A stretch of 25,300 bases of DNA. It comes from Sulfolobaceae archaeon. GTDB lineage: Archaea > Thermoproteota > Thermoprotei_A > Sulfolobales > Sulfolobaceae. Below, in pieces: positions 313 through 24,541 of the stretch. A program made the position numbers and the translations under genes. How positions within the stretch are numbered: the stretch's first letter is position 1; every line of letters starts with the position of its first letter. Below the pieces are notes generated by a model. That model was not told the origin of the DNA and ran no database searches. It was given only the letters and a program-made list of their open reading frames with translations. The DNA lies in assembly GCA_038893355.1 (NCBI GenBank), contig JAWARQ010000010.1, positions 1 to 25,300 of the forward strand. Reading direction: 5' to 3'.

Positions 313-993
313 ATGTCGCTTGATGGTAAAAGTCTTAGGAAAAAGAGTGAGATGATATATGAGAGAATAAAAGAAGATATACAAAAAGGAAAATATTTGC
401 CCGGACAGAGGTTAGCGGAAGAATATTTAGCAAAGGAGTATAATGCTAGTAGAAACACTATTAGAGTTGCATTGGCAAGACTTGAAAAAGATGGGTTGGT
501 GACAAAAACTACTAGCGGTACTATAGTTTCTTTTGTAGATGCAAATGAAGCATTACAAATTTTAGAAATTAGAGAGATTCTTGAGGGATATCTAACAAGG
601 CTTGCAGCTAGAAAAATTAAGGAAAAGGAGTTAGAAAATTTAGAAAGAATTCTAAATGAAATGAGGGAAGTGATTGAGAAGAAAGAATACTATAAATATT
701 CACAGCTTAATGAGGACTTTCATAATATAATTTATGAAGCTTCGGGAAACAAAGTTGGAATTGAGTTAATAAAAAGTTTGAAATTAAGAATTATAAGGTT
801 GCAGTATTTAACAGCTTTATTACCAGGAAGGGCTAATGCGTCAATTATGGAACATGAACAAATACTGAATGCATTAAGAAATCATAATGAGGATGAAGCA
901 GAAAGGGCAGCAAGATTACATGTAGCTAACGTGAGGGAAGTTATAAAAAATAATATTATTCTATTTAACTTAAAGAGTGAATTAAACTATTAA
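313..993 (+). CDS. GntR family transcriptional regulator (wHTH + FCD domain)
   Basis: N-terminal IYERIKEDIQKGKYLPGQRLAEEYLAKEYNASRNTIRVAL wHTH. FCD motifs NEDFHNIIYEASGN, EHEQILNAL and ARLHV. ATG at 313 is preferred to TTG at 268 because a TTTATATA box lies ~30 bp upstream. Confidence 0.92.
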   Translation: MSLDGKSLRKKSEMIYERIKEDIQKGKYLPGQRLAEEYLAKEYNASRNTIRVALARLEKDGLVTKTTSGTIVSFVDANEALQILEIREILEGYLTRLAARKIKEKELENLERILNEMREVIEKKEYYKYSQLNEDFHNIIYEASGNKVGIELIKSLKLRIIRLQYLTALLPGRANASIMEHEQILNALRNHNEDEAERAARLHVANVREVIKNNIILFNLKSELNY

Positions 994-1013
994 TTAAATA
1001 TTAATTATAAGGA

Positions 1014-2366
1014 TTATTTATTCAAGTTTCCTATTATATCTTCAATCTCTTTAGAAATTCTAAGTAACTTTTCATCCTCTTTTGGTTTTCCTATAATCTG
1101 CAATCCCCATGGTAATGAATTTATCTTACCAGCAGGTAATGAAATTGCAGGAGAGCCAAATAAGTTAGGTAATGCAATATATTTAGTTAATATATTCCTG
1201 AACTTCATTTCATCCTTCTCGACCTCTTTAATTTCTGGAGCTACTATAGGAGTAGAAGGTGTTATTACTGCATCCACATCTAGCCTAAGAAACTCTATCA
1301 GCATCGATTCCCTTAATTTCAGAGCCCTAATGTATTCATAAGCGGGAATATTTAATCCCATCCTAATCAATTCAGCAACGTCCCTAGGGTATTCGTTCTC
1401 CCTTTTCATAAACAATTCATAATGTATCGCTGCCCCCTCGCTTAGCCTTATCGTTCTGGCAACTTCCGTTATCTTCTTCAAATCAATATCTAGCCTAATT
1501 ACCTCAATACCATGACTTTCAAGGACTGGAAGCAGTCTAATAAATTCCCTTTCTACTTCAAATTGTGCATTCTCATCAACTAGATATCCTAACCTTAATC
1601 TCCTATTAATCCCCTTACTTACTCTAAGAACATCTATTCCCTCTATGAAAATACTAGCTAGGTATGCAGAATCTATTACACTTCTGGTTAAGAAACCTAC
1701 TGTATCAAAACTCCATGCAGTAGGATATAATCCATGGTTACTTATTAAACCGTAACTCGGCTTATAACCTACTACCCCACATAAAGAAGCTGGAATTCTA
1801 ATGGAGCCAAAGGTATCACTACCTATAGAAGCCTTAACACTACCTACCGCAACTGTAACCGCAGAACCACCACTTGATCCACCAGAAATTCTATTAGGAT
1901 CATAAGGATTCTTCACTGGACCGAAGTCTGATGATACATTACTTACACCACTAGCTAATGCGTGTAAATTAGTCTTACCTATTACTATTCCGTCCTCCTT
2001 CTTTATTTTTATGATAACATCTGCATCATATGAAGGTAAAAAGTCCTTATAAATTCTTGAAGCAATAGTAGTTACTACATTTTTAGTGTAGATATTATCC
2101 TTTACTGCAACGGGAACTCCTATTAAAGCACCGAATTTCATATTACTCTTTACAATCTTGTTAATCATCCTTAAGAGTTCTTCTGATGGAGAGACGATAG
2201 TAATATAGCTGTTAAATCTTGAAGTTTCTTCTTTAACTCTCTCTAAACTCTTATGAACCACTTCTGACGGAGAAGAGTTCCCTCCTATAATATCAGCTAC
2301 TAAAGCAACTAACTCTGCTCTTTTACTGGAAGACACTAGCTCCTTAAGAACTTTCTCAAAGTCCAT
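1014..2366 (-). CDS. Amidase signature family protein
   Basis: GVPVAVKDNI (catalytic Lys), SGGSSGGSA, and GSDTFGSIRIPASLCG (Ser-cisSer-Lys triad motifs). Confidence 0.9.
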   Translation of the reverse strand: MDFEKVLKELVSSSKRAELVALVADIIGGNSSPSEVVHKSLERVKEETSRFNSYITIVSPSEELLRMINKIVKSNMKFGALIGVPVAVKDNIYTKNVVTTIASRIYKDFLPSYDADVIIKIKKEDGIVIGKTNLHALASGVSNVSSDFGPVKNPYDPNRISGGSSGGSAVTVAVGSVKASIGSDTFGSIRIPASLCGVVGYKPSYGLISNHGLYPTAWSFDTVGFLTRSVIDSAYLASIFIEGIDVLRVSKGINRRLRLGYLVDENAQFEVEREFIRLLPVLESHGIEVIRLDIDLKKITEVARTIRLSEGAAIHYELFMKRENEYPRDVAELIRMGLNIPAYEYIRALKLRESMLIEFLRLDVDAVITPSTPIVAPEIKEVEKDEMKFRNILTKYIALPNLFGSPAISLPAGKINSLPWGLQIIGKPKEDEKLLRISKEIEDIIGNLNK

Positions 2367-2497
2367 AGTTAAGTTCTAGAAAAGGTGGTTTATATCCTCT
2401 TAGGAGCATTCTATAATTTATACAAAATGTTTATTTAATTGTATCAAACAATATTAAATATATTTATCATAGTTATTATATAAGTATCTAATAACTA

Positions 2498-3469
2498 CTA
2501 TCCACCTCTGTACTTTACTATATTTATTACTTCCTTTACTATTTTCTCCTCATTAGGTATAACGTATTCTTCTAATGGCTTACTATAGGGTATGCTTGAA
2601 TCTAATGAACATATTCTCTTTATAGGTGATTTTAATAAATCAAACGCCTCCTCTTGAATTGTTGCAGCTATTTCACTAGCAACGCTTCCAGTCTTAGGTG
2701 CCTGATCCACGATAACTAATCTCCCGGTTTTCTCTAACGATTTAATGATAGTCTTCTTGTCTAGGGGAACTAATGTTCGAGGATCTATTACCTCGACACT
2801 TATTCCTTTCTCCTCAAGGATCTTAGCAGCATTAAGTGCCTTATGAACCATCCAGCCTATTGCGATTATAGTTACATCATCACCTCCTTTCTTTATATCT
2901 GCTACTCCGAAGGGAATAGAATAATCTTCTTCTGGAATTTCTTGTTCCATTAGGTAAATATTAAAGGGAGTCAAATAAAATACTGGATTTCCATCCCTAA
3001 TTGCAGTTTTAATAAGACCTTTAGCATCATAAGGTGTAGAGGGAATTACCAGTTTACTACCATAAGCTCTCATGAATAATTCGTACCAAGTGTTAGAATG
3101 CGTAGTACTCCATCCATAAACAAATCCGAAACCGGCCTTAAATACTACCGGAACTTTAACTTGACCTCCAGTACTGTACCTCATTCTGGGTGCTTGATTC
3201 AATAATTGTTCCATTGCAACAAGCATAAAATCAGTCATTATTAAATCTACTATAACCTTTAAACCAGTCATAGCAGCACCAATAGCCATTCCTACCTCAG
3301 CAGTTTCGGATATTGGAGTAAACCTTACCCTCTTACGACCAAATTTCTTTAAAAATGGGTCATCCTCGTTTAAAGCCATATTTTGCCCATAGTAGATAAT
3401 TGTAGGATCTTTTTCCATTTCCTCCATTATTCCCTCATTAATAGCCTGAATATACGTAACCTTCTTCAC
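2498..3469 (-). CDS. 2-oxoacid/acetoin dehydrogenase E1 component beta subunit
   Basis: TPISE, PSTPYDAKGLIKTAIRDGNPV and EVIDPRTLVPLD motifs. GTG start, directly downstream of E1 alpha. Confidence 0.9.
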   Translation of the reverse strand: MKKVTYIQAINEGIMEEMEKDPTIIYYGQNMALNEDDPFLKKFGRKRVRFTPISETAEVGMAIGAAMTGLKVIVDLIMTDFMLVAMEQLLNQAPRMRYSTGGQVKVPVVFKAGFGFVYGWSTTHSNTWYELFMRAYGSKLVIPSTPYDAKGLIKTAIRDGNPVFYLTPFNIYLMEQEIPEEDYSIPFGVADIKKGGDDVTIIAIGWMVHKALNAAKILEEKGISVEVIDPRTLVPLDKKTIIKSLEKTGRLVIVDQAPKTGSVASEIAATIQEEAFDLLKSPIKRICSLDSSIPYSKPLEEYVIPNEEKIVKEVINIVKYRGG

Positions 3470-3483: not shown

Positions 3484-4524
3484 CTACGCATAAATATCTT
3501 CTAATGCCTCTTCAGGTGAAGGGTATGGGCTTTCAAGTGCAAACTTTATTGCATCCCTTAATTCTTCATCTACTTTCAATTCAATTTTAACCAACTCATC
3601 TTCTCCACCTACTATTCCAGAATCTAAAAGATACTTTTTAAATCGAGGTATAGGATCCCTTGCTTTCCAGAATTCTAACTCTTCTGGCTTCTTATAATAC
3701 TCAATAGCCTCATGCTCAGGGAACCATGGAGTTAATGGAGGCGGTACTATTGAGTTACCATGAGCTACGAATCTATAAGTAATAGCTTCAATTAATGTGG
3801 GCCCTTCACCTTTTCTAGCCCTTTCTACAGCCTCCTTAACTGTTACATAAACTGCAATTGGATCCATTCCATCTATCGTTTTAGAGGGCATTGAAAACGC
3901 TTTTGCCTTTACAGATAATGGTTCTCCATTTGCTGCATTTGGATCTTCCAATTCGACTTTGGTATAAGCTTGATAGAGATTATTTTCTAAAATATATACT
4001 ATAGGTAATCTCCACAGTGATGCTATACTTAAAGACTCAAAAAATGCCCCCTGCTTTGTTGCTCCGTCACCAAAAAAGCAAAGAACAACCTGATTAGTAC
4101 CTAAAACTTGATTCCTTAATGCAACACCAGTAGCCTGCGGTATTCCCTGCGCTACTATTCCGTTTGCTGGTAAAAAGTTCTTACTTATATCACAAATATG
4201 CATTGAACCCCCTTTTCCTTTACAAACTCCGGTTTTCTTTCCGAATATTTCAGCTAATAAATTTCTCAAAGGAACACCTTTTGCTATTGCATGAGCATGG
4301 CACCTATACGTTGTTGCAACATAATCCTTAGGCTCGATAGCTGCAATTGATGCTACTGCAACTGCTTCTTGACCTATCGACGGATGTGTATGTCCTCTGA
4401 TTAACCCGGGGTACTCTTTAAAACTTCTAACGATAAACTCATCAAATCTTCTAGCCTTTAACATATTTTCGTATATCCATAACATTTTTTCTTTATTAGG
4501 ATATATAAGTGGTTCGATTTTCAT
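3484..4524 (-). CDS. 2-oxoacid/acetoin dehydrogenase E1 component alpha subunit (ThDP-dependent)
   Basis: GQEA, TYRCHAH and GKGGSMH motifs, ThDP motif GDGA...ENN, and GPTLIEAITYR. Confidence 0.9.
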   Translation of the reverse strand: MKIEPLIYPNKEKMLWIYENMLKARRFDEFIVRSFKEYPGLIRGHTHPSIGQEAVAVASIAAIEPKDYVATTYRCHAHAIAKGVPLRNLLAEIFGKKTGVCKGKGGSMHICDISKNFLPANGIVAQGIPQATGVALRNQVLGTNQVVLCFFGDGATKQGAFFESLSIASLWRLPIVYILENNLYQAYTKVELEDPNAANGEPLSVKAKAFSMPSKTIDGMDPIAVYVTVKEAVERARKGEGPTLIEAITYRFVAHGNSIVPPPLTPWFPEHEAIEYYKKPEELEFWKARDPIPRFKKYLLDSGIVGGEDELVKIELKVDEELRDAIKFALESPYPSPEEALEDIYA

Positions 4525-4574: not shown

Positions 4575-4883
4575 TCACTTATTCTTCTGTACTTTATATA
4601 CAACTTGTTCTTCCACCGGTCTATCGCCTAATCCTAAGATCACAAGCCTATAATCATGAATTATATACGGATTTATTCCATAGTTAAACATCTCTTCTGG
4701 ATCTGCCCTTAATAGGACTCTCATATCCTCTTCAGATAAGTTATACTGCATCATAACTTCGCGAGGGTTTTTCCTGAATTTTTCTCTTAATTCTTTATTT
4801 TCTCTTAAATCATAAATCAACTTATGTATATTGAATCGAGATATTTCGGGAAAGGTATAGTATATTACCATATATAATCCCAT
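4575..4883 (-). CDS. ligA: LigA-like small subunit of a LigAB-type extradiol ring-cleavage dioxygenase
   Basis: SRFNIHKLIYDL...LREKFRKNPREVMMQYNLSEED...LLRAD...GINPY matches the LigA domain pattern, and a LigB gene lies in the same cluster. The start may be the ATG at 4871. Confidence 0.7.
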   Translation of the reverse strand: MGLYMVIYYTFPEISRFNIHKLIYDLRENKELREKFRKNPREVMMQYNLSEEDMRVLLRADPEEMFNYGINPYIIHDYRLVILGLGDRPVEEQVVYKVQKNK

Positions 4884-5123: not shown

Positions 5124-6722
5124 ATGGAAAGTGGTGCAAAACTATTCCTCTCTCTATTAAAGGAAATTGGAGTAGATAAAATATTTATTGTCTCAGGGAC
5201 TGACTATGCTGCTTTTATAGAAGAAAAAGTTAGGGATGAAGGCCTGCCAGAGTTTATAGTAGTACCACACGAAATTACTGCAGCAGCTGCAGCAGTAGGC
5301 TATTCTCTAGCTGGGAAAATAGGTGTAGTAGCTTTACATACTGTTCCGGGTACCGCCAATGCCTTAGGGATAATAATAAATGCTTTTACTTCTAGAATAC
5401 CATTAATTGTTATTGCAGGGAGATCGCCCTATACCGAATTCGGAAGTTCTGCAAGCAGGAATGCAAGAATACATTGGACTCAAGAAGCAAGAGATCAGGG
5501 AGGGATAGTAAGACAATGGGTAAAGTGGGATTTTGAAATAAGGAGGGCTGAACAAATCCCTGAGGTAATAGCTAGGGCATATCAAATTGCCTTTAGTGAA
5601 CCGAGAGGGCCGGTGTATATAATGATACCAAGAGAAGTAAGTATAGAAAAGGCTGAGAAAAGAGTAATTAAGACCGATACCTACGAGCCAGGAGCGAGTA
5701 GAGATGCTATAAAAAAGGCTGAGAAAATTATTGAGGAGAGTGAAAGACCAGTTATAATAACTTGGAGAGCAGGCAGAAGAAGAGAATGGTTTGAAAGCTT
5801 AAAGAGATTTGCTGATAATTATGGATTTCCAGTATTAAATTATGTTGGAGAAGTTGTGAATTATGATGGGGAATACAAATTAGATTATATCGATTTATCA
5901 GATGTAGATCTTGCAATAGTAGTTGAATGTGAAGTTCCATGGATACCTAAGAGAAAACAATTTAAGGGTAAGGTAATAAAGGTCGATGTAGATCCCTCCT
6001 ATTCTTATATTCCATTCTACGGGTTTCCATGTGACCTATGCGTTCAGAGTACAGTTTCGGAGTTTTTTGACCAGCTCAAAGTTAAGCGTAAGGATGAATG
6101 GAGTTATAAGATTAAGGAAATTATCAAGAGTCAAGAAAAAGAAAAGAAAAATGAAATTGAAATCTTATCTAGAAGTAAAAAGATACATCCTAGATACCTC
6201 TCTTATGAAATTGGTAAACTAGTTAATGAATCGACTGTAATTATAAACGAGTACTCATTTAATCCGAAATACGCTAATCTGACTTACGGACAGTACTATA
6301 GTGAACATGCGGCAGGTCATTTAGGATGGGTATTAGGTGCTTCCTTTGGTTATAGCATTGCTACCGGTAAGAAGGTAATTGCAACAGTAGGAGACGGCTC
6401 ATTTATTTTTGGCGTACCAGAAGCCCTATATTACGCAGTTGCAACATATGGTGGGGATGTCCTAATAGTTATTTATGATAATGCAGGCTGGCTAGCTAGT
6501 GCGCTTGCAGTTGAGGAGGTATTCCCAGAGGGATTAGCTAAAGCTAAGAAAATTTTCCCTGGAGCTGATTTTAAGAGATACAATATTGGTGAAACAGTTA
6601 AGGCATTTGGTGGTTATTATAAACTTGTTGAGGAGACTTCAGAGGTCGAACATGCATTACACGAGGCTTATAAAGTTAAAGGTCTTGCAGTTTTACAATT
6701 TATAGTTGAAAAAACTAGATAA
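5124..6722 (+). CDS. Thiamine pyrophosphate-requiring enzyme (acetolactate synthase / benzoylformate decarboxylase superfamily)
   Basis: SGTDY, PHE (catalytic Glu), GTAN and IHWTQEARDQG motifs, plus C-terminal ThDP motif GDGS...DNAGW. Confidence 0.88.
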   Translation: MESGAKLFLSLLKEIGVDKIFIVSGTDYAAFIEEKVRDEGLPEFIVVPHEITAAAAAVGYSLAGKIGVVALHTVPGTANALGIIINAFTSRIPLIVIAGRSPYTEFGSSASRNARIHWTQEARDQGGIVRQWVKWDFEIRRAEQIPEVIARAYQIAFSEPRGPVYIMIPREVSIEKAEKRVIKTDTYEPGASRDAIKKAEKIIEESERPVIITWRAGRRREWFESLKRFADNYGFPVLNYVGEVVNYDGEYKLDYIDLSDVDLAIVVECEVPWIPKRKQFKGKVIKVDVDPSYSYIPFYGFPCDLCVQSTVSEFFDQLKVKRKDEWSYKIKEIIKSQEKEKKNEIEILSRSKKIHPRYLSYEIGKLVNESTVIINEYSFNPKYANLTYGQYYSEHAAGHLGWVLGASFGYSIATGKKVIATVGDGSFIFGVPEALYYAVATYGGDVLIVIYDNAGWLASALAVEEVFPEGLAKAKKIFPGADFKRYNIGETVKAFGGYYKLVEETSEVEHALHEAYKVKGLAVLQFIVEKTR

Positions 6723-6735: not shown

Positions 6736-7185
6736 TTAAATATTCATATTTACATTAAATCCAAATTTCTTTTTTAAATATTCTAGTCCTGCCCTTGCTA
6801 TTTCTTCGTCTTGATCTGGAGAAAAGGCTCCACCAACACCTATAGCACCAACAACCTTACCGTCTATTTCTACTGGTAAACCCCCCTTTAAAGTAGCAAA
6901 CTTACCGTTAAACATATTTTGGATACCATATGCTGGCTTTCCAGGCTGAGCTATATCCGAATACACCCTAGTAGGTCTCATCGTAACTGCTGCAGTAAAT
7001 GCTTTATTAATTGAAGTTTCAATACTTATAATCCTAGCACCATCCATTCTATGAAAAGCAATTAAATACCCTTCTTCATCAACAACTGCTATACTAACAC
7101 TTATACCCAACTCTTTGGCCTTTAACTCAGCACCTTCAATTAAAGCTCTAGCCTCATCCAACCCTAACCTTTGGACATTAATCAT
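6736..7185 (-). CDS. GlcG/HbpS family heme-binding protein (DUF336)
   Basis: IAVVDEEGYLIAFHRMDGA, KAFTA and GGLPVEIDGKVVGAIGVGG...DEEIA motifs. Confidence 0.9.
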   Translation of the reverse strand: MINVQRLGLDEARALIEGAELKAKELGISVSIAVVDEEGYLIAFHRMDGARIISIETSINKAFTAAVTMRPTRVYSDIAQPGKPAYGIQNMFNGKFATLKGGLPVEIDGKVVGAIGVGGAFSPDQDEEIARAGLEYLKKKFGFNVNMNI

Positions 7186-9287: not shown

Positions 9288-9546
9288 AATTATGAGATAA
9301 GGTTAGAAGAATTAAAAACTTGTGATAATTCTTCCTATATCTAGCTTGATAGTCCTCATAAAACTTCATGGATAGCTAGAGATTACCCTACATTGGAGCG
9401 AAAGGTTAAAGAGGTCTCCTCGCTGTACTACATTATTTCCCTTTATAAGTAGGCCTTATACTTGAAAATTATAAATTATGATTCTTTTAAAGTCCAGAAA
9501 CTTTTGTAACGCAGAACTTTTAAATAAATCCTTGAATACTCCATTC

Positions 9547-14033: not shown

Positions 14034-14130
14034 GTTATAAAGCCCTACAGTACTATATCTCTTTATTGATGCGAAAACTTATAAATAATAGTCAAATATA
14101 ATTCTTAGGTGTCCTAAAGGGGTGTGAAGG

Positions 14131-15554: not shown

Positions 15555-15561
15555 ATAAAAA

Positions 15562-15816
15562 TTATTCATTTTTATTATTACTATTATAGTTATATAATCT
15601 ATTTATATATTCATAAAAGTTTTCGTGATCCATAACTAAGATAGCCTCAAGCTCTAATGGATCTAAGAATTTCCTTAGGGAGAAGTTTGGAGAAAATATC
15701 TCTAGTCTTTCCCCATTCGCTGTCTTAACTTTTCTTATTAGAACATATGCATATTCATTCTTCAATTCTATATATCCTTCTTCATTATTATTATTATCTC
15801 CCTTTAGTTCTGACAT
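15562..15816 (-). CDS. Small conserved Rieske-dioxygenase-associated protein (copy 1)
   Basis: NEYAYV..RKVKTANGERLEI.S.....FLDPLELE is paralogous to 19690-19971. It resembles the small ORF following phtAb in actinobacterial phthalate operons. Alternative TTG start at 15819. Confidence 0.75.
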   Translation of the reverse strand: MSELKGDNNNNEEGYIELKNEYAYVLIRKVKTANGERLEIFSPNFSLRKFLDPLELEAILVMDHENFYEYINRLYNYNSNNKNE

Positions 15817-15825
15817 CAATATCGC

Positions 15826-16332
15826 CTAATAGAATGTTGGAAGATTATCTACAAGTATTATGTTAGTATCTGGTATAATCTCTCGCCTTGCTATCTTCCA
15901 ACTACCGTTTACCCTTCTTAGAATGTCATGCCTCTCATACGACAAAAATTCATGATATAGTGAATCATGTTTATGCCTATAGAACAATACATTACTAATT
16001 ACTTTAATTTCATTTTCATTATTAGTTGGCTCTATCCTTACATTAGTTACAAAGCGCCTAGTCATGGATCTAGGAATTTCAGCCCACGCATACTCAGTAT
16101 ATAACCTCTTAACCTTTTTCTCTAATAGAGTTCTATTATCCATTACAATTGGAGAGCCCAATTGCTCTTTAGGCGAATCAGCAACAACATTAAGCCTACT
16201 ATACATTATGTACTCAGCATCATCAGTCCATAATTCTAACCACTCCTTAAACTTATAATTATCTAAGAGCTCTGCTTCCTTATACAAAAACTGAACAATC
16301 TCAAACCATAATTCGTAATTCACCTTTTGCAT
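15826..16332 (-). CDS. Aromatic ring-hydroxylating dioxygenase beta subunit
   Basis: FLYKEAELLD...EWLEL, AWAEIPRSMTRRFVTNV and RHDILR...WKIARR motifs. Confidence 0.92.
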   Translation of the reverse strand: MQKVNYELWFEIVQFLYKEAELLDNYKFKEWLELWTDDAEYIMYSRLNVVADSPKEQLGSPIVMDNRTLLEKKVKRLYTEYAWAEIPRSMTRRFVTNVRIEPTNNENEIKVISNVLFYRHKHDSLYHEFLSYERHDILRRVNGSWKIARREIIPDTNIILVDNLPTFY

Positions 16333-16353
16333 TTTGAATACTCACCCCTTTTC

Positions 16354-17775: not shown

Positions 17776-17880
17776 AGGTTTAAATGAAACTTTTAAGAAA
17801 AAAGCTTTACTGTGTATTTTTAAAGTATAGAGTGCTTGGCGATAATAATCTTTAAAATCTCTAATACTTAATTATTCACA
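17776..17880. promoter_or_regulatory. Divergent promoter region between the two dioxygenase units
   Basis: 105-bp spacer. TTTAAAA at 17851-17857 is ~25-30 bp upstream of ATG 17881, and an AT-rich TTAAAA on the minus strand lies upstream of 17775. Confidence 0.55.
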
Positions 17881-19176
17881 ATGTTATCAGAAAGAGTTAA
17901 AAGCATTCTTGAAAAATTCGAACCCGAAAAGGGTCGTATTCCACTTTCTCTTTTTATTGACCAAGAAATTTATGAGCTAGAATTAGCTACTGTCTTCAAA
18001 AGGAGCTGGTTATTTTTAGGATTTGAAAATATGGTGAAAAATGTTGGAGACTACTTCACAACGACAATGGGAGAAGTTCCAGTAATTGTAACAAGAGATA
18101 AGGATAATCAAGTTAGAGTATTCCTAAATTTCTGCATTCATAAAGGAATGAAATTATGCAGGGCAACTCAAGGTAACTCCACCTTCTTCAGATGCCCATA
18201 CCATGGTTGGACTTATTCAAATGACGGAAAGTTAGTTGGGGTGCCTTATTATGAGCCAGGATATGTTGGTATATTAGATAAGGATAAGCTCGGTTTAATA
18301 CATGTTCCTAACGTAAAGGTGTATAAAGGAACGATATGGGCATCACTTGCTGAAAAACCAAAACCTTTTGAGGAATTCTTAGGAGATATGAAACTTTACT
18401 TAGACCTAATACTCGATATGTTTGAAGAAAATATGGAAGTTTATGGAGGAATTCACAGATGGTTAATACCAGTAAATTGGAAGATTCCGATAGAAAACTT
18501 TGCCGGAGATGCTTATCATGCTCCATTCACTCATGCATCTGTTGTACCAATAGGATTAAGGGCGGGTTATCCTAGTAATGTAAGAATAATTTATCCTGGA
18601 AATGGGCATGGAATAGTTTCAATACCTGCAGGAATAGCTTCCAAAAAGGTAGTAGATATTGAGGGCCTAATGCCATTTAGAGAAAAATTGGAAAAAGCCA
18701 TAGAATTACTCTCCAAGAGATATGGAGAGTTCGTTAAAAACATATTCCCATTCGGTCCTCTAAACGTCTTTCCTAACTTTTCAATACATTTCACATGGAA
18801 TTACTTAATATTTAGAGTATGGCACCCGAGGGGCCCGACTTTAACAGAATTGCAAGGAGGGTTATTAGTATTTAAAGACTTACCGGAAGAGACTAAGAAG
18901 CAAGTTCTAAGGAGAGCGATGCATGAATTCGGGCCTGCCGGATTACTAGAGCAAGATGACGCAGAAATTTGGGGTAAGATTGCTGAAAACAGTATTGGGA
19001 TAAGGAAGCATTCAATAGACCCTGAGCTAATTTATACTAGAGGATTAGGAATGGATAAGCAAGCTGAAGAAGTATTAGGAAAAGGTGCGAAAGGAGTAGT
19101 TGGTGAATACTGGAGCGAGGTATCCTTAAGAGGGTTCTACTCTACCTTGAAGAAATATTTAACTGGTGAGGAGTAA
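17881..19176 (+). CDS. Rieske aromatic ring-hydroxylating dioxygenase alpha subunit (second)
   Basis: CIH...CPYHGW, NWK..ENFAGDAYHAPFTH and EQDDAE motifs. Confidence 0.93.
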   Translation: MLSERVKSILEKFEPEKGRIPLSLFIDQEIYELELATVFKRSWLFLGFENMVKNVGDYFTTTMGEVPVIVTRDKDNQVRVFLNFCIHKGMKLCRATQGNSTFFRCPYHGWTYSNDGKLVGVPYYEPGYVGILDKDKLGLIHVPNVKVYKGTIWASLAEKPKPFEEFLGDMKLYLDLILDMFEENMEVYGGIHRWLIPVNWKIPIENFAGDAYHAPFTHASVVPIGLRAGYPSNVRIIYPGNGHGIVSIPAGIASKKVVDIEGLMPFREKLEKAIELLSKRYGEFVKNIFPFGPLNVFPNFSIHFTWNYLIFRVWHPRGPTLTELQGGLLVFKDLPEETKKQVLRRAMHEFGPAGLLEQDDAEIWGKIAENSIGIRKHSIDPELIYTRGLGMDKQAEEVLGKGAKGVVGEYWSEVSLRGFYSTLKKYLTGEE

Positions 19177-19670
19177 TGAATGTAAGCTATGATGAATATC
19201 TTGCCATTCTCTCATTTTTATATAATGAAGCAATGCTTTTAGATGAGAAGAGATATAAAGATTGGTTAGGATTGCTAACAGAAAATTTCGAGTATAGAAT
19301 ATTTTTAGTTGACTTCGTACCTTACACTACTGAAGGACCAAAGCTAATTACGATACTTGATGAGGATAGAAAGTCTATAGAGAGAAGGATTAACAGGCTC
19401 TATACCGAATACGCTTGGGCTGAAGATCCCCAGTCCCATACACTAAGGGTAGTATCCAACGTAATTGTGGAAGGTAAGGTCGAAAATACATATAACGTAA
19501 GAAGTTATCTCATCTTACACAGAGATAGAGGAGATCTTAGAAATGAAGTGTTCTATGCTAGGAGAAATGATAAGATTGTAAAAATTGATGGTAAATTTAA
19601 ATTGAGCAAAAGAGACGTCATAATAATGGAAAGTATTCTTAGGGAGAGAAATATAAGTATTATACTCTAA
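19176..19670 (+). CDS. Aromatic ring-hydroxylating dioxygenase beta subunit (second)
   Basis: FLYNEAMLLD, AWAEDPQSHT and RRND...FKLSKR motifs. TAATG stop/start overlap with the alpha subunit. Confidence 0.92.
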   Translation: MNVSYDEYLAILSFLYNEAMLLDEKRYKDWLGLLTENFEYRIFLVDFVPYTTEGPKLITILDEDRKSIERRINRLYTEYAWAEDPQSHTLRVVSNVIVEGKVENTYNVRSYLILHRDRGDLRNEVFYARRNDKIVKIDGKFKLSKRDVIIMESILRERNISIIL

Positions 19671-19689: not shown

Positions 19690-19971
19690 TTGGAAATAGA
19701 TCTAGTTAATGAGTTTGCGCATGTTGTTATTAAAGTTGATAAAACAGCAAACGGTGTAAGGCTTGCAATAGAATCTAAAAGATTTGAGAGAGAAATATAT
19801 CTAGATCCACTCATGCTTGACTTTTTAACATTGGCAGACCAAGAAGAATTATTAAATTTTATTAAAAATATAATTGAACAAAAGTATCAGAGATTCTTTA
19901 GACTTTTAAATCCATTAACAGATACAAATAGTAATGAAAGCAATAGACTTTCACGTACACCTACCCCTTAA
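19690..19971 (+). CDS. Small conserved Rieske-dioxygenase-associated protein (copy 2)
   Basis: NEFAHV..KVDKTANGVRLAIES.....YLDPLMLD. TTG start after a GGGTG-type SD; overlaps the next gene by 38 bp. Confidence 0.72.
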   Translation: MEIDLVNEFAHVVIKVDKTANGVRLAIESKRFEREIYLDPLMLDFLTLADQEELLNFIKNIIEQKYQRFFRLLNPLTDTNSNESNRLSRTPTP

Positions 19972-20758
19972 AGAACATAACGAGTTTTTAGGAGATCTTC
20001 TTGAACCAGCAAAAAAATACTTTAATATTGATATCGAGGTAAAGGATACAAAAGAAGTATTAGACTATATGAGTAGTCTAGGGATAGAGAGAGTTGTTGT
20101 TTTACCCATTGACTGTTCTACAAATTTGGGCAGAAAGATCCCTAATGAGTCCGTTCTAAGTATTAAGGATGATAGGGTTATTAAATTCGTTTCCGTTGAC
20201 CCTCTTAAGACTAATTCTTTAGAAGAGTTGAGATCATTGCTTAGTAATTCTGAAGTTTTTGGGGTAAAGTTCCATCCTATTGCACAAAATTTTCATCCCT
20301 TAGACGAAAGAGCATTAAGGCTTTACCGTCTAATCGACGATAAAGGTTTAATCGCATTATTCCATACTGGCTTCACTGGGATCGGTGCTGGCATCAGGAC
20401 AAATTTTAGGTTAGATTATGGTAGACCGATCTATTTTGATGAAATTGCTATAAATTTTCCTAACATGAAAATCGTCTTAGCCCACTTCGGCTGGCCCTGG
20501 GTGGATGAAGCGATAGCAGTAGCACTACATAAGCCTAATGTTTATTTAGATCTCTCCGGTTGGGCCCCAAAATATATACCACAAACAATATGGAACTTCT
20601 CAAAGGGTAAACTACAAGATAAGCTACTGTTCGGCTCAGATTATCCAGTAATAAAACCAGAAAGGTGGTTAAGAGAATTCAATGAGATAATAAATATACC
20701 AAATGAAATAAAAGAAAAAATATTATATAAAAACGCAAAAAAATTACTTAATATTTGA
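19934..20758 (+). CDS. Amidohydrolase family protein (Amidohydro_2; CouO-like)
   Basis: IDFHVH, GVKFHP, FHTG.TGIGAG, AHFGWPW, HKPNVYLDLSGWAPKY and FGSDYP motifs. Confidence 0.88.
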   Translation: MKAIDFHVHLPLKEHNEFLGDLLEPAKKYFNIDIEVKDTKEVLDYMSSLGIERVVVLPIDCSTNLGRKIPNESVLSIKDDRVIKFVSVDPLKTNSLEELRSLLSNSEVFGVKFHPIAQNFHPLDERALRLYRLIDDKGLIALFHTGFTGIGAGIRTNFRLDYGRPIYFDEIAINFPNMKIVLAHFGWPWVDEAIAVALHKPNVYLDLSGWAPKYIPQTIWNFSKGKLQDKLLFGSDYPVIKPERWLREFNEIINIPNEIKEKILYKNAKKLLNI

Positions 20759-21078
20759 AAAAAGAAAAATATGAATATAATATAAATAAAATATAATATT
20801 TAAAAATATAGATCTTAATTCATATCAATTAATCCATCCCTCTTTTTCTACTTTCTTTTTTCATATTAGTTGCAAAGGATAGCTAGGTGCCTAATACGAA
20901 GTAGTGATTGGAGTAGCAAAATATATTTCGTATTGCCGAATGTTATTTTCTCCTCGCATTTACTATGAAAAAGACTATAATTATATTTAACCCCTTAAAG
21001 AATGAAACTAGTAAACCAATTCATAAATAATAAAAATAAAGACTAGTTTTTTATATCACAGAAAAGAATTAGTAACAA

Positions 21079-22692
21079 ATGACAGAGGAGAGTAATGTTT
21101 ATCAACTTTATCAGCCAATTTATAAAGAATTCATTAATAACCCTAAACTTTTCAAAATTTATTACTTTGATGATACTATAGACGGCCAAACTTTACTCGA
21201 GCACTCATTATCCTTGGCCTATTACCTTCTAGAAAGGGGTATTAGCAAAGGTGATAGAATTGCTGTCTATACTCAAAACATTCCCCAATTTATTATAGCG
21301 GAATTAGCAAGTTGGTTCATAGGTGCAATAGTTACCCCCCTCAATATAATGTTGAAGAGTCAAGAGCTAGAGTATTACCTTAGTGACTCTGAAGCTAGGG
21401 CGATCATAGCACTAGAAAGGGAATTTAAAGAGAATGTAAAGCCAATTTTAGATAGAACGAAAGTTGAGGTAATAATAACAACAATAGGTAGCGATTACTT
21501 GACCAATAAAGTAAAAATGTTAGAGAACGAGACCAAAACGTTCCCAATGGGTAAAGAAAATGATTTTAAGAGTATTATAGAGAGGTATAAGGGTAAAAAA
21601 GTAGATATTAGCATCCCAGATAGAGAAGAACTTTCAATGATATTATACACTTCTGGAACAACTGGTAAACCAAAAGGTGCAATGTACACCCACTTTAACC
21701 TTTTCTTCACCGCCTATGTCTTTAAGGAATTTTTTGGGCTGGATAGAAACAAGGATATAATAGGAATTTTTACTCCACTATCCCATAATATTGGAGCGTG
21801 TCTAGTTGCTGCATCCTTATATTCTCTAACGCCAGCACTGATCATGTACAGATTTGAGGCCGGAGAGGCCTTAAGACTAATAGAGAAGTATAAGGTTACA
21901 TTCGGGCTACTACCGTCGACTGGATTTATTGCATTAATGAATCATCCTGACTTTAAAAAACGTGATATTTCCTCATTTAGAAAATTATGGTCAGGTGGAG
22001 CCCCGGTACCCCCTTCATTAGTTGAAGAATGGGAAAAACTGACTGGAACTTATATCCATACTGGGTATGGAATGACAGAAACAAGCGGCACAATTTCAAT
22101 GACTCCACTTAATGAAAGGGCTCCAATAGACTCAGAAACTGGAGCATTAGCTGTAGGCAAGCCGATTCCTTATACTGAGGTCAAAATACTAGATCCAGAA
22201 ACTCATAAAGAACTCCCGATAGGTCAGGTAGGAGAGATAGCAGTTAGGGGCTCACACTTGATGAAAGGCTATTGGAAGAAACCAGAAGAAACAGAGAGAG
22301 TTATGTATAACGGATGGCTATTAACCGGGGATTTAGGAAAAATGGATGAAAAGGGGTGGTTATATTATGTAGATAGACTAAAGGATCTAATTGTAGTCTC
22401 AGGATTTAAAGTATGGCCTAGAGAGGTAGAGGATGTGATATATAAGCATCCAGGAGTAAAGGAGGTAGCAGTAGTAGGAATACCCGACCCATACAGAGGG
22501 GAAGTCCCGAAGGCTTACGTAGTCTTAAAAGATGAGTGGAAAGGAAAAGTCACAGAAGAAGAAATAATAAACCTAGTGAGAAAAACCTTAGCTAATTATA
22601 AGGTTCCTAGGGCAGTAGAATTTGTAGACGAATTGCCTAAGACCGCTTCAGGTAAGATAATGAGAAGATTATTAAAAGAAAAGAAATCATGA
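21079..22692 (+). CDS. AMP-forming acyl/aryl-CoA ligase (long-chain-fatty-acid--CoA ligase family)
   Basis: YTSGTTGKPKG, GYGMTE, TGDLG, DRLKD and LPKTASGKI motifs. Confidence 0.93.
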   Translation: MTEESNVYQLYQPIYKEFINNPKLFKIYYFDDTIDGQTLLEHSLSLAYYLLERGISKGDRIAVYTQNIPQFIIAELASWFIGAIVTPLNIMLKSQELEYYLSDSEARAIIALEREFKENVKPILDRTKVEVIITTIGSDYLTNKVKMLENETKTFPMGKENDFKSIIERYKGKKVDISIPDREELSMILYTSGTTGKPKGAMYTHFNLFFTAYVFKEFFGLDRNKDIIGIFTPLSHNIGACLVAASLYSLTPALIMYRFEAGEALRLIEKYKVTFGLLPSTGFIALMNHPDFKKRDISSFRKLWSGGAPVPPSLVEEWEKLTGTYIHTGYGMTETSGTISMTPLNERAPIDSETGALAVGKPIPYTEVKILDPETHKELPIGQVGEIAVRGSHLMKGYWKKPEETERVMYNGWLLTGDLGKMDEKGWLYYVDRLKDLIVVSGFKVWPREVEDVIYKHPGVKEVAVVGIPDPYRGEVPKAYVVLKDEWKGKVTEEEIINLVRKTLANYKVPRAVEFVDELPKTASGKIMRRLLKEKKS

Positions 22693-22839
22693 ATATATTG
22701 TAATTTTCATTTATATTAAATTAATTTTTATATAAAAGATAATTAAATTTTTAAATAATTATAAAAAATAATTATTTAAAAATTTATGCATCTGTTATTA
22801 CGTAAAATTTAAATATTACCTTATATTTAACAAATTTTA

Positions 22840-24162
22840 ATGGATGAGAAAAAAGGAAGTAAGGAGGAAATAGTTATAACTAGGGGAGAACTAGTAAAGG
22901 TAGCTTTTGCATCAGTAGTAGGAACAACAATAGAATGGTATGATTTTACTGTATCAGCAACTGCTGCCGCAATAGTATGGCCTTTCGTATTCTTCCCGCA
23001 ACAAGATCCGGCAGCCGCTTTCCTATTTTCAATAGTAACGTATAGTGTCGGTTTCCCTATTAGGCCTATAGGTGCAATAATATTTGGCCATTTTGGCGAC
23101 AAGTATGGTAGGAAAAGTGTACTAATCTTTACACTCCTTACAATGGGTATTGGAACTTTAGGCATAGGCCTAGTACCGCCCTATGCCACAATAGGAATAT
23201 GGGGCGCAATACTTGTTGGAATATTCAGAATCCTACAAGGACTTTCACTCGGTGGTGAGTGGGGTGCAGTTTCAACTTGGATCACCGAATTTGCTGCCAA
23301 GAGTAAATATAGGGCATTTTGGGCAAGCTGGGTTCAAATGGGAGGCCCAATCGGAATACTCTCATCCAACGCCCTATTCCTATACCTCACACTATCCCTC
23401 ACAAGATCAGACTTCCTAAACTGGGGCTGGAGAATACCATTCTACATCGGAGTAATAGTAGTAATAGTCGGGGCAATAATAAGGTATAGACTCAACGAAA
23501 GCCCATTATTCAAGATGATAATAACTAAGAGATTTACCGCAAGGGTGCCGGTCGTTGAGCTATTTAAGAACCAGTGGAGGACAATTGTAATACTAGCAAT
23601 AAGTTGGTGGTATATCAATACATTAATATGGACACTAACGACATTTACTCAAGGATATATATCTAGAGTAAATCCGAGTGTACCACCCTACATTGGCCCA
23701 CTAGCAGGAATAATGGTAAGTGTAGGCGGAATACCAGGTGTTTTAGCTGGTGCTTTTGCTTCAGATAGGATTGGTAGGAAAATAGCATGCTTGATTGGTA
23801 GTTCATTGGCTGCAGTCTTCTCGTTCCCTTACATCTTGCTAATCTCTACCGGTAGTTTAACATTAACATTCATTTCGCAAGTGATAATGGCATTTATAAT
23901 CCACTTCGGATATGCACCGTTGCCAGCGTTTTTTGCTGAACATTTCCCCACGAGGTATAGAGCCTCTGGTACCGGGTTTACCTATCATATAGCTAACCCG
24001 TTCTCTGGCGCAATAGCGCCGATAATTGCTGCTTACTTTACTGCAATTTATGGTGCAATTAACGCTGCACCATATATTGGGGCTATAGCATTTGCATACT
24101 CAATAACTTCAGTAATAGCCACGTTATTTACGAGGGAGACAATGAAGAAGGAATTAGAATAA
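22840..24162 (+). CDS. MFS transporter, metabolite:H+ symporter (second)
   Basis: GTTIEWYDF, GHFGDKYGRK, GGEWG, WGWRIPF, ESPLF and FPTRYRASG motifs. Confidence 0.93.
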   Translation: MDEKKGSKEEIVITRGELVKVAFASVVGTTIEWYDFTVSATAAAIVWPFVFFPQQDPAAAFLFSIVTYSVGFPIRPIGAIIFGHFGDKYGRKSVLIFTLLTMGIGTLGIGLVPPYATIGIWGAILVGIFRILQGLSLGGEWGAVSTWITEFAAKSKYRAFWASWVQMGGPIGILSSNALFLYLTLSLTRSDFLNWGWRIPFYIGVIVVIVGAIIRYRLNESPLFKMIITKRFTARVPVVELFKNQWRTIVILAISWWYINTLIWTLTTFTQGYISRVNPSVPPYIGPLAGIMVSVGGIPGVLAGAFASDRIGRKIACLIGSSLAAVFSFPYILLISTGSLTLTFISQVIMAFIIHFGYAPLPAFFAEHFPTRYRASGTGFTYHIANPFSGAIAPIIAAYFTAIYGAINAAPYIGAIAFAYSITSVIATLFTRETMKKELE

Positions 24163-24343
24163 TTTTTATAAAAAACAAATATTATTTTTCTCACCAATTA
24201 AATTAGATATGATTAGATTAAATATTCATTAGATTTAGTTTTAAATAAGATAAATTAACTTTTGATTTATAATTTAATAATGATATTATTTCTAATTAAT
24301 AAATGATTTAATCGAGAGAATTGACTAAAGGTAAAAAGAGGTT

Positions 24344-24541
24344 TTATTCTAATTTTTCTCTAAAAGCTCCTATGCTTCTGAATACGGGCTCATCGGAAAA
24401 TGAAAAGACTATTGCATCCCTCTTTCCTAAATTTCTTATCTTATATCTATACCATGGAGGAATTACTGCTACATCATAAGGCGTCATTGTAAAAATGCCG
24501 TAATCTTCTATAAGTATGTCTATATTTCCTTCCAGTGTGGA
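24344..24541 (-). pseudogene. 3' remnant of a cupin dioxygenase (gentisate 1,2-dioxygenase-like), truncated by IS insertion
   Basis: Manual minus-strand translation gives STLEGNIDILIEDYGIFTMTPYDVAVIPPWYRYKIRNLGKRDAIVFSFSDEPVFRSIGAFREKLE*. This matches the GtdA C-terminal pattern (D.FVVPSW...DAVLFSFSDRPV..ALG.FRE) and ends at the IS left end. Confidence 0.72.

Follow-up and report, generated by a model that had tools for sequence, protein, structure and literature searches.

An intact and uncharacterized gene cluster of aromatic-acid catabolism families in a Sulfolobaceae archaeon

Introduction

Contig JAWARQ010000010.1 of assembly GCA_038893355.1 (Sulfolobaceae archaeon; here genome G000, contig C10) is 25,300 bases long; it was analyzed as a whole and is referred to below as the window. 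It carries, densely packed, the genes of two Rieske-type ring-hydroxylating oxygenases, of the two halves of a LigA/LigB-type ring-cleavage dioxygenase, and of a GalB-like hydratase and a GalC-like aldolase. The question raised by this locus is whether a thermoacidophilic archaeon possesses a route of its own for aromatic acids and, if so, for which acids and by which steps. The cluster is real, intact and uncharacterized, it is less singular than was first thought, and the label of a phthalate cluster is not well founded. In our judgement there is about an even chance that it serves to degrade one or several aromatic carboxylic acids aerobically, by a gallate-type lower route.

Genome G000 comprises 1.40 Mb in 17 contigs and is 83.8% complete with 0.04% contamination; because it is incomplete, absences given for the whole genome are provisional. 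Families in the window were assigned with Pfam, NCBIfam and sequence matches to PDB entries. The distribution of the genes was surveyed in 46 other genomes of the family, and the 40 kb around matches were compared in three complete chromosomes, which match Sulfolobus/Saccharolobus sp. E5-1-F (G056), S. tengchongensis (G058) and S. acidocaldarius SUSAZ (G009). Two further relatives are Metallosphaera yellowstonensis MK1 (G022) and a second Metallosphaera genome (G051).

The original prediction for this DNA had listed two Rieske alpha/beta pairs, a Pht5-like protein, LigA/LigB, GalB, GalC, a gentisate dioxygenase-like stub, two transporters of the metabolite/H+ symporter (MHS) type and a GntR regulator, and every one of these families was found where it had been placed. 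The archaeal host that it assumed agrees with the taxonomy of the contig (Sulfolobaceae, archaeal 16S rRNA on contig C1, an insertion sequence (IS) shared with chromosomal contigs), and the family matches bear out that these are families of aerobic aromatic-acid catabolism via oxalomesaconate and 4-carboxy-4-hydroxy-2-oxoadipate (CHA) to pyruvate and oxaloacetate.

Ring cleavage and lower pathway

LigB, GalB and GalC form an apparent operon (13191-15554, plus strand), from which major facilitator superfamily (MFS) transporter 1 diverges at the LigB end. The LigA-like small subunit is encoded 8.3 kb from LigB, and the two genes are also separate in G056, G058 and G009; in M. yellowstonensis, LigA stands directly upstream of GalB-GalC-LigB. 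It is kept in five related clusters at 49-79% identity (83% in the G056 comparison of Table 1), with 27 invariant positions in five sequences. In gallate dioxygenase, a LigB domain and a LigA-like domain are fused; here the two are encoded by separate genes, and the match to a two-subunit LigA + LigB enzyme holds at the family level only (both Pfam scores exceed their cut-offs, Table 1).

Residues H12, H60, H189 and E234 of LigB are invariant across 17 sequences of its clade, and in the alignment with 1b4u the invariant positions pair with His61, the SH motif and Glu242 of LigB, i.e. with metal and base residues. The protein matched MhpB (E = 3.5e-18), LigB (1b4u_B, 3.1e-16) and the gallate dioxygenase DesB (3wku, 3.3e-13). 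A model of the LigA-LigB complex reached an ipSAE of 0.93, the highest-scoring of three controls having 0.00, with contacts at least 97% consistent between runs and a partner pLDDT of at least 87; among benchmark pairs, 58 of 80 solved complexes and 2 of 110 mismatched pairs attained a mark of that level. In this model LigA covers LigB residues 60-62 and 190-198, beside the predicted metal and base residues, although the good score may only mirror the likeness of the pair to the solved LigAB complex. An exhaustive search of 1.84 billion representative sequences yielded 26 relatives of LigB at E <= 1e-30, with only three full-length clusters at 43% identity or more among them. The named relatives among the word-indexed matches came from Sulfolobus/Saccharolobus, a Thermoplasmatales metagenome-assembled genome (46%) and Caldarchaeum (36%). 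Judged by these sequences, LigB belongs to a small and divergent clade, the named members of which are to date all archaeal.

GalB matched PDB entry 5cgz ('4-oxalmesaconate hydratase') over residues 5-215 with an E-value of 7.7e-44, the next PIG-L structure following at 2.1e-10; in the publication of 5cgz the enzyme is presumably named a 4-carboxy-2-hydroxymuconate hydratase. GalC matched 3noj (E = 1.1e-59) and scored above the cut-off of equivalog NF006731 (271.7 bits, cut-off 179) and below that of TIGR02798 (238.7 bits, cut-off 304.5). By sequence, both proteins are specific homologs of the bacterial enzymes. In the phylum, GalB-like genes at E <= 1e-25 occurred in 9 of 400 sampled genomes, three of them Sulfolobaceae and six belonging to three other families (38-43% identity).

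Ring-hydroxylating oxygenases and redox partners

Both alpha subunits are intact, with the Rieske motif CxH...CxxH and the iron motif D/E-x3-D-x2-H-x4-H (at residues 95/211 of alpha1 and 85/205 of alpha2), and each is directly followed by its beta subunit (Ring_hydroxyl_B, 112 and 102 bits); these motifs and the pairing identify two Rieske non-haem-iron oxygenases of the alpha-beta type. The two alpha subunits scored highest with the Rhodococcus naphthalene dioxygenase (253 and 256 bits), HcaE (251 and 203 bits) and 9jp5, the alpha subunit of phthalate 3,4-dioxygenase (242 and 241 bits), and low with terephthalate dioxygenase (116 and 84 bits). The closest homologs of alpha2 are those of Sulfolobus sp. 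E5-1-F (80% identity), Saccharolobus shibatae (81%) and S. acidocaldarius SUSAZ (68%), the next matches falling to 46%. In a tree of mostly unnamed alpha subunits, the alpha2 orthologs form a single monophyletic Sulfolobaceae clade on a long branch, and alpha1 and a third alpha subunit (on contig C12) fall into a deep pair of clades apart from it; the tree is midpoint-rooted, so no donor and no direction of transfer are claimed. Orthologs of alpha1 and beta1 are 84% and 83% identical in G056 and 68% and 57% in G009; those of alpha2 are 80% identical in G056, 81% in G058 and 68% in G009.

A Rieske ferredoxin of 100 amino acids is encoded among shikimate-pathway genes on contig C2. Such a gene is present in 45 of the 46 family genomes, a profile that is uninformative, and the protein was set aside as a dedicated partner; it is a housekeeping candidate available to the oxygenases and not specific to them.

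A small open reading frame (ORF) comes after each beta gene, u85 after beta1 and u93 after beta2. The two products are cysteine-free paralogs (37% identity). In G056, G058 and G009 their genes hold the same place behind the beta genes, and 16 positions are invariant, an LDPL motif among them; the paralogs may be an unrecognized accessory protein of Rieske oxygenases of the alpha-beta type. Their nearest look-alikes in the ESM Atlas, Actinomycetota proteins of 67-87 amino acids (scores 0.86-0.88, TM 0.60-0.62), serve as leads only; one cluster of them carries the automatic name 'Dihydrodiol dehydrogenase'.

A second aromatic cluster lies on contig C12 (21-14750). It comprises an MFS transporter, a zinc-dependent alcohol dehydrogenase (Zn-ADH), a UbiD-type decarboxylase, Rieske beta3/alpha3, another Zn-ADH and MFS transporter, an HTH_10 regulator, an AMP-ligase, an enoyl-CoA hydratase and a molybdenum (Mo) oxidoreductase. 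It is collinear with the G056 region adjoining LigA, and in G056 the two clusters form one block of about 30 kb. Other Rieske-rich regions are G055:C1:1616293-1645196 and G058:C1:800434-819989; among their genes is that of another Rieske ferredoxin, a divergent one (36-38%), and the G055 region also has a PrpF-like gene.

Conservation in the family Sulfolobaceae

A core of the cluster, consisting of the two alpha-beta Rieske oxygenases, the split LigA/LigB, GalB, GalC, the Mo-oxidoreductase, a D-isomer-specific 2-hydroxyacid dehydrogenase (2HADH), GntR and an MFS transporter, is shared with G056, G058 and G009 (50-90% identity) and partly with M. yellowstonensis. Its distribution is patchy. 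Some Rieske alpha subunit (E <= 1e-20) was found in 15 of the 46 genomes, an alpha2 ortholog at 64% identity or more in four, GalB at 70% or more in five (besides a fragment of 58% identity that contains a stop, and a 30% relative), and LigB at 48-89% in four, with its C-terminal half alone in one more. LigA, LigB, GalB and GalC occur together in five genomes of four genera, and in one of these they form one operon.

The G056 cluster is almost collinear with the window, although partly inverted (identities in Table 1), and those of G058 and G009 are rearranged; the order LigB-GalB-GalC is the same in G056 and G058. The alpha2 protein of G056 is identical to that of E5-1-F, and the alpha2 protein of G009 to that of SUSAZ. 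In M. yellowstonensis, LigA-GalB-GalC-LigB are four adjacent genes (52, 73, 81 and 48% identity to the window proteins), near which lie 2HADH (63%), GntR (55%), a thiamine pyrophosphate (TPP) enzyme (59%), MFS genes and paralogous Rieske genes. GntR orthologs (50-71%) stand beside the cluster in five relatives, and 2HADH orthologs (53-76%) in all five related clusters, which makes 2HADH a conserved core member.

Proposed pathway and alternatives

Gene content, family assignments, intact catalytic motifs, the patchy conservation across Sulfolobaceae and the archaeal host are established by the sequences; the substrates, the order of the steps, the electron donors and the expression of the genes are what we infer from these data. 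Aromatic acids would enter via the MHS-type MFS symporters, under the control of the GntR/FCD regulator. The two alpha-beta Rieske oxygenases would hydroxylate the ring with electrons from components encoded elsewhere, e.g. the housekeeping Rieske-type ferredoxin. LigB, a class III extradiol dioxygenase with its separately encoded LigA cap, would then open a gallate- or protocatechuate-like ring. Cleavage would give oxalomesaconate directly, with tautomerization being spontaneous at high temperature. The GalB-type hydratase would convert 4-oxalomesaconate or 4-carboxy-2-hydroxymuconate to CHA, which the GalC-type aldolase would split into pyruvate and oxaloacetate. The Pht5-like protein, the TPP enzyme, the Amidohydro_2 protein, the CoA ligase and the amidase would be peripheral, funnelling into the route and differing from one species to another; in the source organism, Pht5 could supply the route with a dihydroxyphthalate-like intermediate. 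The gallate-type lower route is favored because LigA, LigB, GalB and GalC would make up a minimal gallate route, because they form an operon in M. yellowstonensis, and because LigC- and LigI-type genes were found neither in the window nor among the genes examined in the three orthologous clusters. No LigC-type Gfo/Idh/MocA gene was found in the window in particular, and the best GFO_IDH_MocA match genome-wide was one of 25 bits, on contig C5.

Several observations weigh against this scheme. LigB, whose substrate is a predicted one, is about equidistant from MhpB, LigB and DesB, and it stays far below all NCBIfam equivalog cut-offs (gallate dioxygenase NF009904, 77.4 bits with a cut-off of 412; protocatechuate 4,5-dioxygenase NF009912, 74 bits with a cut-off of 837). 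No GalD/LigU PrpF-type tautomerase was found in the window, and a pure gallate route would have no use for the conserved Mo-oxidoreductase and 2HADH. Ferredoxin, reductase and cis-dihydrodiol dehydrogenase genes were found neither in the window nor among the genes examined in the three orthologous clusters. Ten extra genes were scanned in those clusters: thiolase-like, ChsH2-like zinc ribbon, luciferase-like monooxygenase, Nre, radical SAM, UbiD, Zn-ADH, HTH_10 regulator, enoyl-CoA hydratase and aldehyde dehydrogenase. G051 carries MFS-GalB-GalC-2HADH-GntR-MoCo (8010-19212, MoCo being the Mo-cofactor oxidoreductase) with no oxygenase match in 20 kb and no LigB match in the family survey, so the lower module may serve something else. 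There are also signs of decay in relatives, namely a C-terminal half of LigB (G019:C1:954548-955000) and a piece of GalB that contains a TGA codon (G050:C4:7944-8207).

A PrpF-like gene does occur on contig C13 (101 bits) and in one of the 46 family genomes. It was rejected as the missing conserved tautomerase, having been found in none of the five other cluster-bearing genomes searched. Contig C13 encodes this PrpF-family protein (217-1170, minus strand), an Amidohydro_2 protein of 400 amino acids (7908-9110, minus strand) and a TPP enzyme (10236-11918, plus strand).

The conserved Mo-oxidoreductase is accommodated by a variant of protocatechuate 4,5-cleavage, in which this enzyme (with the HbpS-like protein) or 2HADH would oxidize 4-carboxy-2-hydroxymuconate semialdehyde (CHMS) to 4-carboxy-2-hydroxymuconate, replacing LigC and LigI, and GalB and GalC would follow. 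We consider such a bypass unlikely on balance. In its favor, the best NCBIfam match of the Mo-oxidoreductase is the alpha subunit of the Sulfolobales-type glyceraldehyde dehydrogenase (528 bits, cut-off 790), which suggests an aldehyde-oxidizing lineage, and its orthologs are co-conserved with GalB/GalC in G056 (83%), G009 (69%) and G051 (52%). G058 is without an ortholog, but in its joined 40 kb a MoCo gene of 32% identity (20017-22245) lies directly upstream of LigB, and an Aldedh gene (490 bits; 25778-27247) follows HbpS; these two may be a non-orthologous replacement of the aldehyde-oxidizing step. The product of the Pht5-like protein would be protocatechuate, and the second name given above for the 5cgz hydratase would suit the bypass. 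However, no small (2Fe-2S) or medium (FAD) subunit gene lies beside that of the large Mo subunit (a single Fer2_2 small-subunit gene was found in the incomplete genome, on contig C4), no dehydrogenase is encoded inside the four-gene operon of M. yellowstonensis, and we know of no precedent for a Mo-enzyme that replaces LigC and LigI.

The Pht5-like gene points to another substrate. According to this alternative the cluster would chiefly degrade phthalate (or iso/terephthalate) by a Rieske dioxygenase, a dihydrodiol dehydrogenase and Pht5 to protocatechuate, followed by 4,5-cleavage, for which we see decidedly little likelihood. The Pht5-like protein matches 9jp7 ('4,5-dihydroxyphthalate decarboxylase') over residues 23-350 (E = 2.1e-64), i.e. 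at full length, and is 48% identical to the products of Burkholderia genes annotated as 4,5-dihydroxyphthalate decarboxylase; the one of these that was inspected has an oph-like context, flanked by an annotated oxidoreductase, a ferredoxin and a Rieske protein. With the alpha subunit of phthalate 3,4-dioxygenase, the two window proteins score 241-242 bits, and two Pht5-like genes of M. yellowstonensis sit among Rieske alpha/beta genes in a genome for which Gene Ontology (GO) terms of phthalate catabolism are given as enriched in the available text of a 2020 study (PMC7325606). Against this, naphthalene dioxygenase and HcaE score as high or higher and terephthalate dioxygenase reaches only 84-116 bits, no diol dehydrogenase of the Gfo/Idh/MocA type was found in the window, and no cognate reductase was found. 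Moreover, a query with the Pht5-like protein matched one of 40 relatives, M. yellowstonensis, with two full copies and a broken one, and Pht5-like, TPP enzyme and Amidohydro_2 genes were not found in the 40 kb examined of G056, G058 and G009. As the oxygenases persist there without Pht5, they have a Pht5-independent job, and phthalate cannot be the core function. The Pht5-like protein is a lineage addition outside the conserved core, and a phthalate route is possible as an add-on in the source organism and in M. yellowstonensis.

That there is no coherent pathway at all, and that the window is a mosaic of partly decaying catabolic genes in an IS-rich region, with GalB, GalC, 2HADH and MoCo acting on a non-aromatic organic acid, has in our view a slim chance. 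The IS and repeats at the two contig ends, the truncated cupin gene, the gene order rearranged between species, the split ortholog of MFS transporter 2 in G009, the lower module of G051 and the fragments in G019 and G050 would all fit it. Against it stand the core genes, all intact with their catalytic motifs, the joint occurrence of LigA, LigB, GalB and GalC described above, and the conserved promoter element upstream of LigB.

A wider picture can also be drawn, which we put forward as doubtful. In it the Sulfolobaceae would own a version of gallate/protocatechuate meta-cleavage working at about 75 °C and pH 3, with an archaea-restricted split LigA/LigB, a Mo aldehyde oxidoreductase in the place of LigC and LigI, alpha-beta Rieske oxygenases that lack redox partners of their own and borrow the housekeeping Rieske ferredoxin, and a Pht5 extension to phthalate-like dicarboxylates in the source organism and in M. 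yellowstonensis.

Host genome and contig

An archaeal small-subunit rRNA gene (1513 bits) is present on contig C1 of G000, and the genome is placed in the same family as M. yellowstonensis MK1, i.e. in the Sulfolobaceae. Tetranucleotide usage of C10 correlates with that of the rest of the genome at 0.985; its GC content is 0.359, compared with 0.311-0.328 in the five largest contigs. Contigs from runs of three other studies match pieces of C10 with 0 differences, among them an independent piece of 2662 bp that spans the junction of the Mo-oxidoreductase and Pht5 genes. Runs labelled as manure metagenome shared 0.16-0.22 of the sampled words of the stretch, a figure from which nothing is concluded, and no RNA run was listed as containing it; in about 3% of a metatranscriptome run, from a study whose DNA run contains the stretch, 0 reads matched, a count that does not bear on expression. 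The IS1-family element at the right end of C10, whose copies begin at window position ~24542, has DNA copies at C16:7158-7913 (98%), C2:188339-188969 (93%) and C1:157326-157668 (83%); that on C2 is internal to a contig of 233 kb, and C1 carries the archaeal 16S rRNA gene. These copies show that the element has been active in the genome.

That C10 is bacterial DNA mis-binned into an archaeal genome, as its GC content and the many families best known from bacteria might suggest, is so very unlikely as to be negligible, because the IS is shared with C2 and C1, the tetranucleotides are host-like, complete Sulfolobaceae chromosomes of a single contig contain orthologous clusters and the independent contigs show 0 differences, and the closest homologs of alpha2 and LigB likewise bear Sulfolobus/Saccharolobus names. 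A plasmid origin was also rejected, as megablast of the 25-kb window against 72,556 plasmids gave no match. The cluster is a chromosomal accessory cluster of a Sulfolobaceae archaeon.

Positions 1-127 of the window are repeated at C9:29485-29611 (100%) and C13:14305-14437 (96%), near the ends of both contigs, and are probably another repeat that broke the assembly. Contigs C9, C10, C12 and C13 may be neighbors in one IS-rich variable region.

Gene content of the window

The window contains 29 ORFs of at least 80 amino acids, which reduce to a dense map of 25 non-overlapping ORFs and one gene stub; no tRNA gene was found in it. Its features are listed in Table 1. The map adds to the original prediction the amidase, the E1 alpha/beta pair, the TPP enzyme, the Mo-oxidoreductase with the HbpS-like protein, 2HADH, the Amidohydro_2 protein, the AMP-ligase and the two paralogous small ORFs, and all families that had been listed are intact except the cupin stub.

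Table 1. Features of the window, with strand, family evidence and identity of the G056 ortholog (PDH, pyruvate dehydrogenase)
Feature	Position	Strand	Evidence	Identity in G056 (%)
GntR/FCD transcription regulator	268-993	+	Pfam FCD 104 bits, GntR 62.6 bits; first in-frame ATG at 313 is the likely start	71
Amidase-signature amidase	1014-2366	-	Pfam Amidase 280 bits; no NCBIfam equivalog reached	70
TPP-dependent 2-oxoacid dehydrogenase E1 beta	2498-3469	-	Pfam; NCBIfam PDH E1 models below cut-off	
2-oxoacid dehydrogenase E1 alpha	3484-4524	-	Pfam; NCBIfam PDH E1 models below cut-off	
LigA-like small subunit	4575-4883	-	Pfam LigA 33.3 bits, cut-off 25.3	83
TPP enzyme, acetolactate-synthase/benzoylformate-decarboxylase superfamily	5124-6722	+	NF006203 679 bits, cut-off 456	
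HbpS/GlcG-like protein	6736-7185	-	Pfam HbpS-like 129 bits	76
Mo-cofactor oxidoreductase, large subunit	7203-9287	-	Pfam MoCoBD_1/2 and hammerhead domains	83
Pht5-like protein (4,5-dihydroxyphthalate decarboxylase family)	9478-10542	+	PDB 9jp7, E 2.1e-64	
2HADH	10539-11513	-	Pfam 222 bits; no NCBIfam cut-off reached	71
MFS transporter 1, MHS type	11577-13016	-	Pfam; TIGR00883 223 bits, cut-off 443	69
LigB	13191-14003	+	Pfam LigB 120 bits, cut-off 26.3	89
GalB-like PIG-L hydratase	14131-14850	+	PDB 5cgz, E 7.7e-44	90
GalC-like aldolase	14847-15554	+	NF006731 271.7 bits, cut-off 179; PDB 3noj	87
Small ORF u85	15562-15819	-	Paralog of u93	80
Rieske beta1	15826-16332	-	Pfam Ring_hydroxyl_B	83
Rieske alpha1	16354-17775	-	Pfam Rieske and Ring_hydroxyl_A	84
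Rieske alpha2	17881-19176	+	Pfam Rieske and Ring_hydroxyl_A	80
Rieske beta2	19176-19670	+	Pfam Ring_hydroxyl_B	79
Small ORF u93	19690-19971	+	Paralog of u85	
Amidohydro_2 protein	19934-20758	+	Pfam 151 bits; no NCBIfam family	
AMP-forming acyl-CoA ligase	21079-22692	+	Family matches	
MFS transporter 2, MHS type	22840-24162	+	TIGR00883 340 bits, cut-off 443	
Gentisate-1,2-dioxygenase-like cupin gene stub, C-terminal, 67 codons	24347-24547	-	Aligned to M. yellowstonensis protein	
IS1-family element	24542-25300	+	Transposase ORF 24577-25194; NF033558 102.6 bits, cut-off 100	

The peripheral genes differ in how far they are shared. The amidase adjoins GntR also in G056 (70%) and G058 (65%). Among the related clusters, E1 alpha/beta orthologs (72-78%) occur in that of G009 only. 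G009 also has a 63% ortholog of the AMP-ligase and, at about 2072-3383, one of MFS transporter 2 (63-66%), which is broken into three overlapping pieces in different frames and is probably frameshifted. The TPP enzyme has a 59% ortholog in the M. yellowstonensis cluster and a 67% paralog on contig C3, and MFS transporter 1 has its ortholog in G056 (69%). An ORF of 112 amino acids antisense to the start of MFS transporter 2 (22827-23165, minus strand) has no family match and is probably no gene.

The Amidohydro_2 protein is absent from the related clusters, and its only PDB matches are the uncharacterized entries 3irs and 3nur; it would be of a decarboxylase or lactone/ester hydrolase type. LigI, a pyrone-dicarboxylate hydrolase, is itself of the Amidohydro_2 family and has solved structures; an identity of the window's Amidohydro_2 protein with LigI, LigJ or LigW was unsupported by PDB and NCBIfam searches.

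At the right end, the IS1-family element truncates the gentisate dioxygenase-like cupin gene and closes the contig. The remaining stub is 36% identical over 64 amino acids to the C-terminus of a 361-amino-acid protein of M. yellowstonensis, which itself matches gentisate 1,2-dioxygenase TIGR02272 at 210 bits, below the cut-off of 442.

The sequence TTATATAA lies 26-33 nt upstream of the ATG of GntR at 313. Most first genes have a TATA-like box 25-37 nt upstream, and the genes inside operons, GalB, HbpS and u93, have a GGTG motif in front of them. Both agree with Sulfolobales promoters and ribosome-binding sites. In DNA of 64% A+T only the conserved box of LigB carries weight, a TTTAAA that four genomes keep unchanged some 30 nt before the start of the gene. 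A search of five intergenic regions for inverted-repeat operators gave AT-rich palindromes only, none of them convincing.

Literature and significance

In the available text of two reviews, from 2018 and 2026, the aromatic catabolism of Sulfolobales is limited to phenol meta-cleavage (PMC6140281, PMC13324097), and in that of a 2022 survey tmoA is the sole ring-hydroxylating oxygenase reported in the order (PMC9535955). The main text of a 2026 phthalate review, as far as available, makes no mention of 'archaea' (PMC13040137); Pht5 is predicted in hadal Thaumarchaeota according to the accessible part of another report (PMC10773090). The 2020 study of M. yellowstonensis MK1, in the portion available, gives GO terms for the catabolism of benzoate, phthalate and other aromatics as enriched among strain-specific genes and lists benzoate/toluate dioxygenase among cross-domain transfers; it offers GO terms and horizontal gene transfer calls, not this pathway (PMC7325606). 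Searches for Sulfolobus, Sulfolobales or archaea together with protocatechuate, gallate, oxalomesaconate, gentisate, phthalate dioxygenase or CHA found no description of the pathway, and the original prediction that it is uncharacterized in Sulfolobales therefore holds for the literature searched.

Other parts of that prediction have to be revised. It had spoken of an island; the cluster is not private to this organism, the synteny survey revealing an accessory cluster common to several cultured Sulfolobaceae. 'Bacterial-type' does not suit LigB, whose few close relatives are archaeal where named. The proposed conversion of phthalate to protocatechuate keeps its Pht5-like homolog; it hangs on that one gene, which one of 40 relatives shares, and the oxygenases resemble those for naphthalene and phenylpropionate, not phthalate 4,5-dioxygenase. 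With terephthalate dioxygenase at only 84-116 bits, a relevance for monomers of polyethylene terephthalate is weak.

If the preferred reading is true, thermoacidophilic archaea would have a second aerobic aromatic route, aimed at aromatic acids, beyond the phenol/catechol meta route. This would widen their diet in hot acidic springs, where plant-derived phenolic acids, and perhaps phthalate-like compounds, are the likely sources. At low pH, aromatic acids are protonated, membrane-permeant and toxic, and because of this toxicity the cluster could also serve detoxification. Genomes that match cultured strains carry it (S. tengchongensis, Saccharolobus shibatae, E5-1-F, M. yellowstonensis and S. 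acidocaldarius SUSAZ), and it is hence directly testable; its Rieske oxygenases, LigAB, GalB and GalC would be thermostable forms of these enzymes.

Comparison with known systems

The gallate pathway of Pseudomonas putida KT2440 consists of the dioxygenase GalA, the tautomerase GalD, the hydratase GalB, the aldolase GalC, the transporter GalT and the regulator GalR. The cluster resembles it in LigB-type cleavage, a PIG-L hydratase (5cgz) and a CHA aldolase of the RraA fold (3noj), in the adjacency of LigB, GalB and GalC, and in the MFS transporter and regulator alongside. It differs in that its dioxygenase is split, with LigA distant, and scores 77 bits against the gallate dioxygenase model with its cut-off of 412; in the lack of a PrpF-type tautomerase; in having a GntR/FCD regulator and a transporter of the MHS type; in the co-conserved Mo-oxidoreductase and 2HADH; and in its thermoacidophilic archaeal host.

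Protocatechuate 4,5-cleavage in Sphingobium sp. SYK-6 proceeds by LigAB, LigC, LigI, LigU, LigJ and LigK. A two-subunit LigA/LigB (1b4u_B, 3.1e-16, and the complex model) and, by prediction, the same end products via a CHA aldolase are common to both systems, whereas in the cluster no LigC (Gfo/Idh/MocA) or LigI was identified; it has a hydratase of the GalB type instead of the amidohydrolase LigJ, and does not have LigA and LigB adjacent. With the phthalate 4,5-dioxygenase pathway of Pseudomonas and Burkholderia (Pht2/3/4/5, OphA1/A2/B/C) it shares the full-length decarboxylase homolog, which however stands outside the conserved core; its oxygenases are alpha-beta enzymes resembling naphthalene dioxygenase and HcaE, not alpha-only, and neither reductase nor diol dehydrogenase was found in the cluster.

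The phenol/catechol 2,3-dioxygenase meta-pathway of Saccharolobus solfataricus belongs to the same host family and likewise has aerobic extradiol cleavage and archaeal promoters. Where the cluster has Rieske alpha-beta oxygenases, the phenol route has a multicomponent di-iron monooxygenase; where the cluster has a class III LigB-type enzyme, the phenol route has catechol 2,3-dioxygenase; and the cluster would lead through tricarboxylic intermediates to pyruvate and oxaloacetate. A further comparison is the complement of M. yellowstonensis MK1. Its Rieske alpha subunits are paralogs with 28-35% identity to those of the window and its gene order differs; within about 70 kb it has LigA-GalB-GalC-LigB (48-81%), 2HADH, GntR, the TPP enzyme, Pht5-like, Rieske alpha/beta and gentisate dioxygenase-like genes.

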